Assembly (NCBI GenBank): GCA_021513715.1
Contig: CP084167.1
Location: 128,001-192,000, forward strand
Origin: Candidatus Heimdallarchaeum endolithica
GTDB lineage: Archaea; Asgardarchaeota; Heimdallarchaeia; Heimdallarchaeales; Heimdallarchaeaceae
Length of the DNA stretch: 64,000 nt
Reading direction: 5' to 3'
Below, in pieces: positions 4,594-7,367 of the stretch. The notes beneath the pieces were generated by a model. The model was not told the DNA's origin, made no database searches, and saw nothing but the letters and a program-made list of their open reading frames with translations. Numbering within the stretch: position 1 is the first letter of the stretch; the number at the start of each line of letters is the position of its first letter. Both the position numbers and the translations under genes were made by a program.

Positions 4594-5388
4594 TTAAACT
4601 TTTTCTCTTTTCTTTCCAACAAAAGTTATTATAATCTGTAATATCAATATTATGACTGTTCGTATCATTCCTGAATATTCTATAACTTCACCTATTTTTT
4701 CGATACCAGGATACAATACTATGATTATAAATCCACCTAAATTTATTCCTCCGTGGTAAAAGGTTGGCCACCACACATTGTTCATCTCTTTTCTGAACCA
4801 GTTAATTACAAAACGTGATAAGATTATCCCTATGATACTAAGAGTGAACATCAACGGTGTATATGTAAAATATTTAACTCCCCAAAGATAAAAAGGAACA
4901 TGCCAGACAGCCCATACTAAACCTATAATCAAGTTCTTTACTTCTTCTCTCATTTTTAAGTTTGAATAAAGCCATCCTGCCCAAGCTATTTCTTCAAAAA
5001 AAGCTTGTATTAGAATTGAGACAGGTAATACAATAAGTGTGATTATGATTTCTAAGTTTATTTCTACTAAAGGTAAAGAATACTTGAAGATCGCAAACAA
5101 AAGTAAATATACAGAACCTATTAAAGCTGCTAAAATAATTAGTAGCAAAGATTTCAAATCAAATTTGACATCAACTGTAACACCTATATTTTCTAGTTTC
5201 TTATTGACTACTCTAGCAAAAACTAAACTCCAAATTAGTGTCCCTGCTAGATAATAAGACCCAATCCAAGTAGAAGGGACCGAAAAAAGATCAAGTAGAA
5301 AACCACCTAACCAATTCCAAATTAGCAAAATGGCTACAAAAGAAATTGGATTAAAGAATGACTTAACTTTTGATTTTTCTTCACTCAT
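4594..5388 (-). CDS. CPBP (Abi/Rce1-like) intramembrane metalloprotease
   Basis: EEIAWAG, WAVWH and H-G-G-IN motifs; multiple TM helices. Confidence 0.88.
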   Translation of the reverse strand: MSEEKSKVKSFFNPISFVAILLIWNWLGGFLLDLFSVPSTWIGSYYLAGTLIWSLVFARVVNKKLENIGVTVDVKFDLKSLLLIILAALIGSVYLLLFAIFKYSLPLVEINLEIIITLIVLPVSILIQAFFEEIAWAGWLYSNLKMREEVKNLIIGLVWAVWHVPFYLWGVKYFTYTPLMFTLSIIGIILSRFVINWFRKEMNNVWWPTFYHGGINLGGFIIIVLYPGIEKIGEVIEYSGMIRTVIILILQIIITFVGKKREKV

Positions 5389-5389
5389 G

Positions 5390-5640
5390 ATTTACTTTTT
5401 GCGAAGTTTGTCGAACTTAGTCTTTCAAGAAAAAAACAAAGAAAGAGAATTGTTAGTTTCTTGAGAACTTAATCCTAACATACAATGAAAGAAGAAGGAT
5501 TAAGGCAGACGTCATACACGAATCGGGGGAATCATAAAGAAGAGAAGATGTTCTCTTCACTCCACGAGAGACAAAAAAGAAAGAATTATCCCTAAAATAG
5601 AGAAATTATCTTTCTTTTTGTCTACTGGGACTGCAACCAA
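5390..5640 (-). ncRNA. Putative omegaRNA scaffold of the TnpB element
   Basis: Lies between the tnpB stop and the element end. Four stem-loops: 5425-5432/5457-5464, 5468-5476/5496-5504, 5539-5546/5551-5558, 5569-5584/5609-5623. Confidence 0.55.
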
Positions 5641-7083
5641 TGGCTGAGTCCTCGGCAAACAGTATAATGCGTAAGACTAAACTTTTGACCAGTAAAGTAA
5701 TCAGTAATAGTTGTAACACGGGGACGAAAAAGATGACTAAGGAACTTACGAGCAATATTTCTAGCCCCTGTTAAATCAGAGTGGTAAGTATAGTTACAAA
5801 AGGGACAGTGTATTAATCCTCTGACGGGACGAGAAACTTCTTTTCCACAACGGGAACAATGAGAAGATGTTCCTCTTTCGTCTATTATAAGAATGCGGTG
5901 AGATTCAAAACCTCTTAATATCAATGCTCGACGGAGAAGAGAAAGAACTAAAGAAAAATTCCACTGGTGAAGTTTTCTGCGAAAATAACGAGTACTTTTA
6001 CCTTTCCCTTTTTCTTTTCCTTTTCTAACATTTTTGGGGTAACCTACGACGACGAAAAGGTCATACATTTGAGCATAGGTCACTATCGTCCGCACAACGT
6101 CGTTTATAAATTGGTGAATATAGGACCGTTTAACGTTTCTATACCTTCTTCTGAGAAGACCGAGAAAACGGTAAATTTAGTGTTTTTTACCCGACTGGTC
6201 ATTTAGAGCTGCTTTCCTCTGAAGACGGGAAAACTTGAGTTTATATCTGTGATTGATTCTATTCCACTGTTTGGTATGCCAGAATTTTATTTCTTTGCTT
6301 GTTAACTTCTTTTTGGGAGTTAGTAACACTCCTGTAGCAGGAATGTTTATCCCTAGATCTATCCCCAGCACAGCTGGGGGAAGAGAAGAAAAACTTTCTT
6401 TTTCAGGAGGATAAAAAGAAGAAGGAGGAAGAACTTCTAATTGAAAATACACCCACCACTCACTTGTAGAACGTTTATATCTCAGTTCTAAACTTTTTAT
6501 TTGTCCTTTCTTCAATTCTTTTTGATGGAAAGTGCTCATCTCTAAAGGTAACCATAATCGTTGATGATACCTTGTCTTTCTTTTCCACGTGTCTAATGAG
6601 TCTCTTATTCCTACCCACCAACGAGAAATGGAGTTATTTTTCTCTTTAGGTAAATTAGTAAGAATAAATCTTTTTTTATTGATTAGTTGTCTTCTGGGTC
6701 TCTTTTTTGGAGGACGAGTGGCTTCAGGGTCTATATCCTTGCTCGTACAGTTGTACTGCTATATCTCTACACTCTTGAAACTCATCGTGAGAACAATATG
6801 GAAACATCTTTTTAAGGTCATGAGGAACAGTTGTTCTTCTCTCTTCTACTTTTTTTAGCCTTGATGTTGTTAATGTTAGTTCATCTAGTTTTCCTCTATG
6901 TACTCTTATTTCTCCTTTCTTTGTTTTCATACACAGTCTTCTTCTGTTGTGATGTATAATTTTTACATATTTTTCTATTATCCTTGTGTCTCTCCCTGTT
7001 ATTCTCCTTAATCTTTCCTTTTTTCTCCTCGTCAAAACTTCATTTTTTATTTTTACTTTCAAAGTTTTGACTATCTTCTCCAT
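5622..7083 (-). pseudogene. tnpB: TnpB-family RNA-guided nuclease, disrupted (frameshift near 6740, in-frame TAA at 6177-6179)
   Basis: RuvC-I LGIDLG, VVVGYP, IDERGTSSHCSRC, CPFC zinc finger, RuvC-III HSDLTGARNI; N-terminal KTLKVKI. Confidence 0.9.
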
Positions 7084-7367
7084 CTTTTTTCCTCTTCTTT
7101 TCCTTTTTTTCTTTTTCTTCTCTTCATTTATTTCTACTATTTTTTCTTATAAAAAGTCTCTTTTTTTTCTTTTTCATCCATACTCTCTATCCTAATGTTC
7201 GCAAAATTACGCAAAAAGTAAAGCATGGTTCTTTTTTCTTCTTCTTTATATTTATTTTTTTTTGAATTTTTTTAAAAGAAATCAGAAAAATCATTACAAA
7301 GTTCTCAGCAAATGAAAAAAATGTTTTAGATAGAAGATATTCACTTTTCATTTTTTTTTACAAAAAA

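Follow-up and report, generated by a model that had tools for sequence, protein, structure and literature searches.

The locus examined here raised the question of how a gene for TnpB, an RNA-guided nuclease, came to lie between terminal inverted repeats (TIRs) with CATG on either side and no transposase inside. The window, a stretch of 64,000 nucleotides from the archaeon Candidatus Heimdallarchaeum endolithica, corresponded to C1:128001-192000 of a single-contig genome of 3,326,783 bp with ~30% G+C (G000), and contained one such element of ~1.8 kb at positions 5389-7224. The inverted arms (5386-5416 and 7197-7227) were 31 nt long and imperfect, 84% complementary with a 13-nt perfect core. 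CATG was present at 5386-5389 and 7224-7227, and the sole gene between the ends was tnpB, on the minus strand. The ~31-bp imperfect TIRs with a 13-bp perfect core and the lack of an internal transposase, both claimed in an earlier note on this DNA, were thus borne out. The window copy was a decayed, non-autonomous member of a transposon family in Asgard archaea (Heimdallarchaeaceae), which was inserted at the dinucleotide AT. The reading that we favour, with a probability of about 0.5, is that of a family of AT-core TnpB transposons mobilised in trans, probably by a chemistry like that of the IS607 serine recombinase.

The nature of CATG was determined by comparison with empty sites. The closed genome of a sister species of the same genus (G001, 3,081,793 bp, 88% nucleotide identity) was used, and insertions were compared in both directions over 2.4 of its 3.08 Mb (78%). 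The G001 site orthologous to the window copy read ...ttcttcgct CATG gttctttttt..., with exactly one CATG, as had been predicted for the collapse of the empty site. A total of 22 empty sites was recovered between G000 and G001. The outer base on the tnpB 3' (omega) side was other than C in six events (T, T, A, T, T, and T) and was identical to the empty-site base in 6/6, and the outer base on the other side was other than G in four events (C, A, T, and C) and was identical to the empty-site base in 4/4. The inner G and inner C were unchanged in all 10 informative events and were never derived from the target. The 4-bp pairs, given as occupied over empty, were TATG...CATG/TATG (three clean cases), CATG...CATT/CATT, CATG...CATA/CATA, AATG...CATG/AATG, and TATG...CATC/TATC. 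These alignments show that CATG is a composite: its central AT is common to the target, its outer C and G come from the flank, and the element contributes the inner G and C as its own termini. Because every deviating outer base was that of the empty site, and the element kept its inner G and C, duplications of 4 bp and of 3 bp were refuted. Three origins of CATG had been offered earlier. The 4-bp duplication failed in 10/10 events, and the 2-bp AT duplication with G..C termini and the blunt insertion of TG..CA both survived. An insertion adds G...C plus one AT or, equivalently, TG...CA blunt at A^T, and the sequence is compatible with both.

The target was strongly constrained on both sides. 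AT was present at both junctions in 39/39 insertions, with C at -1 in 28 of the 39 and G at +1 in 34, against a background of 15%. The full CATG was found at 23/39 targets versus 1.85% of genomic AT sites (P = 5e-32 for 24 or more of 39), and CATG was not unusually depleted genome-wide (observed/expected 0.81, like other palindromes). CATG on both flanks, as described in the earlier note, was correct for the window copy and did not hold as a rule of the family, since the copies read [C/T/A]ATG ... [C/T]AT[G/T/C/A] with only AT invariant. In the empty sites, the core was AT in 16/22, and three others read AA, TT, or GT. Seven occupied/empty pairs differed at one position of the tetranucleotide, and in all seven the consensus base (C, A, T, or G) was located on the occupied allele. 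Single-base mismatches are expected at 88% identity; for their 7:0 direction, selection on the junctions or chance is a possible cause.

The window copy and its flank comprised the following features:
5386-5389 (no strand), left junction CATG: C5386 is flank, A5387-T5388 the AT core, and G5389 the terminal base of the element, as assigned from the empty sites.
5389-5416 (no strand), inverted-repeat arm at the tnpB 3' end, with two tandem subterminal motifs, TTTTGCGAA and TTTGTCGAA, conserved in all copies of subfamily A (see below).
5390-5660 (minus strand), candidate omega (guide) RNA scaffold, which overlaps the tnpB 3' end, continues downstream of it, and reaches the end of the element, proposed from a fold z-score and conserved blocks.
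5622-7083 (minus strand), tnpB pseudogene in three open reading frame (ORF) pieces, 6724-7083, 6177-6539, and 5622-6095.
7197-7224 (no strand), inverted-repeat arm at the tnpB 5' end, with two tandem TTTTGCG motifs and C7224 as the terminal base.
7224-7227 (no strand), right junction CATG: C7224 is element, A7225-T7226 the AT core, and G7227 flank, as assigned from the empty sites.
4594-5388 (minus strand), flanking host gene for a 264-aa protein of the Rce1-like CAAX protease family (PF02517, E = 4.3e-10).

When the tnpB gene of the window copy was compared with an intact 485-aa reference copy (L002:1743-3197:-), an additional C (+1) was found at ~6728-6730, and the codon at 6177-6179 was TAA where intact copies had CAA. 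Reading with an alternative genetic code (table 4, TGA as Trp) was rejected as an explanation of the broken gene, as the reading frame was not restored; the breaks are therefore real lesions. With a frameshift and a stop codon relative to intact copies, the window copy is a pseudogene.

The element belonged to a multi-copy family. The 13-mer TTTACTTTTTGCG had 13 occurrences across the 3.33 Mb of the genome, all of them at an end of a copy or fragment of the element. A DNA search of G000 recovered ~12 full-length copies and several fragments, and G001 contained ~11 copies with ends and flanks of the same kind, so that the genome-wide search for the ends and the tabulation of flanks, which the earlier note had put forward, supported its expectation that other copies share such ends. 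The copies of subfamily A were 92-96% identical to the window copy and ended in TTTACTTTTTGCG, and those of subfamily B were ~81% identical to it and ended in TTTTTTACGTAA. The intact 485-aa ORF was kept in several copies. Type C encoded a 505-aa TnpB (at 709 kb and 1,465 kb; ends TTTTTTGTACA), and type D, at 598 kb, encoded a 414-aa TnpB-like protein lacking the zinc finger. The type D ORF was considered as a transposase and rejected, being another TnpB-like protein. Miniature elements were represented by a 383-bp type with ~16 copies and a second type of ~360 bp with ~7 copies. Types A, B, C, and D and the miniature elements had a common layout, in which [N]ATG was followed by about six bases, a run of T, and a short core motif. 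The subterminal motifs (GCGAA, ACGTAA, GTACA, and CCCCAC) varied with the TnpB lineage, both ends changing together. Two further genera of this archaeal family contained homologues at 40-46% identity, again single-gene elements with [C/T/G]ATG and inverted ends, in which the tandem motif TTTCCCCAC occurred twice. On the tnpB 3' side, the ten terminal bases, AAAA(N)TAA(A/C)TC followed by AT, were conserved across all of these elements. Because three copies of the 383-bp miniature element were at least 99.7% identical, the family had moved recently.

Two rearrangements were associated with family members. The G000 copy at C1:3321689-3323549 was an A/B chimera, whose end was of the subfamily B kind next to the tnpB 5' end and of the subfamily A kind next to the 3' end, which hints that the end types are interchangeable or that copies recombine. 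The two flanks of the miniature elements at G000 1601379-1761 and 1840192-569 mapped to G001 with opposite orientation and a separation of a few hundred bases, which suggests inversions with breakpoints at the elements.

The intact 485-aa TnpB contained the C-terminal TNB zinc-finger domain (PF07282, E = 2.9e-9, over the cut-off), and no other Pfam domain was recognised. The NCBIfam model guided_TnpB (NF040570) scored 84.5 bits (E = 8.7e-24), under its cut-off of 100 bits; judged by this score, the protein is a divergent TnpB. When 36 homologues were aligned, which came only from Heimdall- or Thor-group Asgard archaea, residues D241, E401, and D435 and the four cysteines of the CxxC..CxxC zinc finger were invariant. 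The position of the canonical RuvC-II glutamate was occupied by an invariant glycine (G346), and an alternative invariant glutamate, E401, was located just before the TS..C motif. As aligned, the catalytic D-E-D triad is rearranged but conserved, of a type catalogued previously (PMC10691335). The AlphaFold model had a pLDDT (predicted local distance difference test) of 83 and was matched by Foldseek to Cas12f, ISDra2 TnpB, ISFba1 TnpB, and Fanzor2, with E values of 4e-15 to 1e-8 and a probability of 1.0. The protein thus has the fold of a TnpB, a RuvC-like nuclease with a WED/REC-like N-terminal part and the TNB zinc finger.

The 270 nt at the tnpB 3' end, up to the element boundary, folded with -76.4 kcal/mol (z = -4.87 versus 200 shuffles), which fits a candidate omega RNA. 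Blocks in this region were conserved across subfamilies, and the alignment was too divergent for a consensus structure (5 predicted pairs). No Rfam family matched in a search of the 3' region. As the scaffold extends to the end of the element, the guide would come from the flank, here the 5' end of the Rce1-like gene. The CAT of the left junction doubles as the minus-strand start codon of this gene. Its ATG was cut off by the insertion from the native upstream region, which is uninterrupted in G001, and the gene has tnpB as its immediate upstream neighbour, with both on one strand.

The mobilising enzyme was searched for in several ways. In the indel scan of G000 insertions against the compared 78% of G001, the AT-core insertions were only of TnpB and miniature types and none contained a transposase ORF; when longer elements with such ends were sought by motif, the matches were again of these types only. 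The autonomous partner proposed by the earlier note was not found in G000 or in the compared 78% of G001, and no autonomous copy with a transposase adjoined the homologues on 8 contigs from metagenomes or metagenome-assembled genomes. No transposase recurred among the neighbours of homologues on metagenomic contigs, and a circle- or tandem-junction pattern had no match in metagenome and genome collections, a result that is uninformative. A solo or Asgard-type Cas1 was rejected as partner, as 3/3 Cas1 genes of G000 were located in CRISPR-cas operons and none near tnpB. A 1.05-kb insertion sequence (IS) with GCATG in its ends was also rejected; it was an ordinary IS with 6-7-bp duplications, and its CATG was coincidental.

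In the reading that we favour, the cargo of an element consists only of the TnpB nuclease and its candidate omega RNA, enclosed by termini 5'-G...C-3' in ~28-nt imperfect inverted ends with tandem subterminal repeats. The element inserts into the dinucleotide AT with a strong preference for C-AT-G, leaving one AT on each side. An enzyme whose gene lies outside the elements would drive this movement in trans by exchanging or staggering strands over the 2-bp AT. The most likely chemistry is a conservative crossover over an identical dinucleotide by an IS607-like serine recombinase, and the recombination may be performed by a resident recombinase instead of the canonical IS607 TnpA. By analogy with IS605 and IS607, the TnpB and omega RNA of intact copies would serve retention or homing and not the transposition step. 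The dinucleotide at both junctions and in the target is a feature described for IS607, IS1535, and ISC1926, as are imperfect inverted repeats and short direct-repeat motifs in the ends (PMC6188088). Further points in favour are the presence of IS607 TnpA above its cut-off in 14/41 related genomes and, for movement in trans, the restriction of AT-core insertions in the indel scan to TnpB and miniature types.

Several observations weigh against this mechanism. The IS607 TnpA model (NF033518) remained below its cut-off in both closed genomes, and in G000 it weakly matched two resident resolvase-like proteins (240 and 249 aa) with the catalytic domain at the N-terminus, where an IS607 TnpA has its DNA-binding domain. 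Unrelated ends (CCGTCGTCCACTGA...) were found on the IS607 elements of sister genera. In IS630 insertions the middle dinucleotide of a 4-bp palindrome is duplicated (TA in CTAG), and the symmetric ends of the AT-core elements and their palindromic 4-bp preference with a central 2-bp duplication resemble this pattern. The sequence fits a blunt TG..CA insertion as well as a 2-bp AT duplication. At G001 C1:2122726-2122745, orthologous to the G000 copy 2031510-2033370, the 18 bp TATGTGGATTTACCATAA were found instead of 4 bp and included the first seven bases of the element; this may be an imprecise excision footprint, which would favour a cut-and-paste DDE enzyme. Finally, a homing role of TnpB is awkward because the occupied junction rebuilds the CAT(G) of the empty site, and no obvious motif would spare the donor.

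The 240- and 249-aa proteins, encoded at L213:1216-1935:- and L214:1204-1950:-, were the only serine recombinases in G000, similar ORFs were present across the genomes of the family, and the two are candidates only. The IS607 TnpA itself scored over the cut-off in 14/41 related genomes and was rejected as partner, being absent from G000 and G001 and linked in the relatives to IS607 ends of an unrelated kind. A doubtful but possible alternative is that the mover is of a kind with no previous link to TnpB transposons: a small serine recombinase, resident and conserved in the chromosome, that several unrelated TnpB lineages have co-opted, an unrecognised transposase fold, or, in the extreme case, TnpB itself. 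If this were true, the elements would form an Asgard transposon superfamily defined by its ends and not by a transposase gene.

A DDE transposase acting in trans with 2-bp staggered cuts at AT, by cut-and-paste or copy-paste, would move the family as IS630/Tc1-mariner elements move at TA in CTAG, with TnpB as cargo, a role that it has in the published DDE-linked branches and in the Fanzor1 elements. We regard this as unlikely. The symmetric inverted repeats with conserved termini, the preference for a palindromic target with an invariant central dinucleotide on both sides, and the possible excision footprint described above would all be accommodated, but the footprint-like site was seen at only 1/22. 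The IS630 DDE_3 domain (PF13358) was not found in G000, G001, or the element-carrying genomes of genera g2 and g4, the dinucleotide was AT and not TA, and no AT-core element encoding a transposase turned up in either the indel or the motif scans. Different ends and duplications of 6-14 bp characterised the resident DDE insertion sequences (IS481-like, IS6-like, and the 1.05-kb IS).

It is improbable that TnpB itself, with or without the omega RNA, moves the element, the RuvC/RNase-H-fold nuclease cutting the ends without a separate transposase. In favour of this, tnpB was the sole gene of every element, the active site was invariant across the family, the subterminal motifs differed by TnpB lineage and changed together at both ends, and the activity evident from the miniatures at least 99.7% identical took place in genomes without a recognisable partner. 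To our knowledge, however, TnpB has no strand-transfer activity. Furthermore, four distinct TnpB types (the 485-aa A and B, the 505-aa C, and the zinc-finger-less 414-aa D) combined a single terminal design with a single AT target, and this points to an external enzyme in common; the existence of the A/B chimeric copy also counts against this explanation. In all systems tested to date, TnpB is reported to be unnecessary for transposition (PMC8612924).

It is highly improbable that the element is of the IS200/IS605 type, moved by a Y1 (HUH) TnpA and inserted beside CAT without duplication, with a CAT of its own at the other end. Elements of that type have asymmetric ends with subterminal hairpins and insert 3' of a tetra- or pentanucleotide, and their other flank is unconstrained. 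The sequence does permit one AT or CAT to be owned by the element, the palindrome TTTACGTAAA was present in some ends, and one Y1 tnpA was found in G000 (925120-925500). The 31-nt ends of the window copy were symmetric and 84% complementary, however, palindromes were not conserved across subfamilies, and the target was constrained on both flanks. The closed G001 contained no Y1 TnpA (PF01797) although it had insertions of its own with empty sites in G000. The architecture is therefore not that of IS200/IS605, because the ends are symmetric, a conserved hairpin is lacking, and G001 has its own insertions without this enzyme; on this point the earlier note, which had called the ends unlike IS200/IS605, was right. 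The Y1 TnpA was rejected as partner, given its absence from G001 and the interruption of the lone G000 copy at its 5' end by a miniature element; that copy was part of an ordinary IS605 with GC-rich hairpin ends of another kind.

The surroundings of this lone tnpA (G000 C1:925120-925900) were also inspected. A degenerate miniature AT-core element was located exactly at the 5' end of the gene, and no in-frame start codon was present upstream of the conserved region.

A duplication of 4 bp (CATG) at the target site, suggested by CATG on both sides of 23/39 insertions, retains almost no probability, being refuted by the empty sites TATG, CATT, CATA, AATG, and TATC under unlike occupied ends.

Taken together, the interpretation of the earlier note was upheld for a mobile, TIR-bounded element with tnpB alone and one CATG in the empty site, and it failed for the 4-bp duplication and for an overstated contrast with IS607. 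Its proposal that TnpB was recruited by a DDE or recombinase-type element is plausible; no partner gene was found.

Three other segments of the window were absent from G001. The 3.8 kb at 10810-14575 had inverted IS6-like ends (GGTAGTGTCTAGTTTT), with a short TnpB fragment at ~11083-11283 and an AT-core-like end at 11097, and looks like a composite transposon. The 1.8 kb at 17269-19070 lay between 12-bp direct repeats (TTTTGTTTGAAA), had a longest ORF of 178 aa, and looks like an unrelated insertion with a 12-bp duplication. The 10.5 kb at 23360-33900 was bounded by ends of the 1.05-kb IS (AAGCATGTCC) and contained a 2278-aa ORF.

Since TnpB in inverted-repeat transposons has been published (PMC10691335) and TIRs have been shown to belong to the scaffold in Fanzor1 (PMC10711439), the general idea is known. 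The features particular to the AT-core family are the AT core with its CATG preference, the restriction to Asgard archaea, one end design across several TnpB types, and the missing partner; a literature search for this family found nothing specific. Cas12 and the eukaryotic Fanzors descend from TnpB, whose moves between transposon types bear on the spread of RNA-guided nucleases, including into eukaryotes. The Heimdall group is described as the Asgard clade phylogenetically closest to eukaryotes (PMC8813620), and in the AT-core family TnpB and its candidate guide RNA are cargo between symmetric ends with a 2-bp core, a layout as in Fanzor1. As the family was recently active in two closed genomes in which no partner was identified, the mobilising enzyme is a concrete, testable problem. 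The element termini rebuild the palindromic CATG at both junctions, which raises the question of how TnpB homing would tell empty from occupied sites.

Among known systems, the closest comparison is the IS607 family (IS607, IS1535, and ISC1926), whose ends contain imperfect inverted repeats, short direct-repeat motifs, and a dinucleotide GG common with the target (PMC6188088); the claim that IS607 lacks TIRs was thus too strong. IS607 and the AT-core elements both have TnpB with a 3' guide-RNA region, in the AT-core elements a candidate one, a dinucleotide at both junctions that is present once in the target, and no classical long duplication. The likeness extends to the repeated motifs of the ends, namely TTTTGCGAA/TTTGTCGAA and the two copies of TTTTGCG in subfamily A, and the two copies of TTTCCCCAC in the other genera. 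Unlike IS607, the family has an AT core and not GG, a strong C-AT-G flanking preference, and far more symmetric ends. Moreover, no IS607-type TnpA was found in the elements or in either closed genome, and the true IS607 ends of sister genera were unrelated.

Prokaryotic TnpB branches have been tied to DDE transposases with inverted terminal repeats, among them the IS630-linked DDE-6 with symmetrical ends (Altae-Tran et al. 2023, PMC10691335). These branches and the AT-core family share a TnpB in an inverted-repeat transposon, within ~250 bp of one end (PMC10691335). They differ in that no DDE gene with AT-core ends was found, in the dinucleotide, AT instead of TA, and in the restriction of the family to Asgard archaea. 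Solo TnpBs are presumed to be mobilised in trans, and Asgard TnpBs linked to Cas1 have been described (PMC10691335). With the latter (Cas1H-Asgard groups, PMC10691335), a likeness was seen in the Thorarchaeota homologues (~33% identical), whose GAGTGAACTC and GAGTTCACTC resemble the downstream GTTCACTCA of those groups; unlike them, the three Cas1 genes of G000 were in CRISPR-cas operons away from tnpB, and the Heimdall elements had AT-core inverted ends.

On four Thorarchaeota contigs (L073, L074, L215, and L217), the TnpB homologue (~33% identical) was divergently oriented from a very large ORF without a Pfam match. This ORF was 1701 aa long in L215 and 1877, 1599, and 571 aa in the other three, where it was cut by the end of the locus or contig. 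At least in L073 and L074, GAGTGAACTC was located upstream and GAGTTCACTC downstream of the tnpB homologue.

The IS1341-type solo tnpB elements and the PATE-like derivatives of IS200/IS605, which consist of guide RNA only, share with the AT-core family a single tnpB gene and protein-less miniatures that keep the 3' region, in the AT-core family that of the candidate RNA. Unlike these, the family has symmetric inverted ends with an AT core, versus asymmetric hairpin ends beside a tetranucleotide, and G001 lacked a Y1 TnpA. In Fanzor1, of eukaryotes and their viruses, the guide-RNA scaffold includes the TIRs and duplications, and the TIR is transcribed with it (PMC10711439). The AT-core element differs from Fanzor1 in being prokaryotic and in its TnpB of the rearranged RuvC-II type, and the likeness between them is one of layout and not a traced evolutionary link: in both, a TnpB-family nuclease is carried by a non-autonomous TIR transposon with short duplications.

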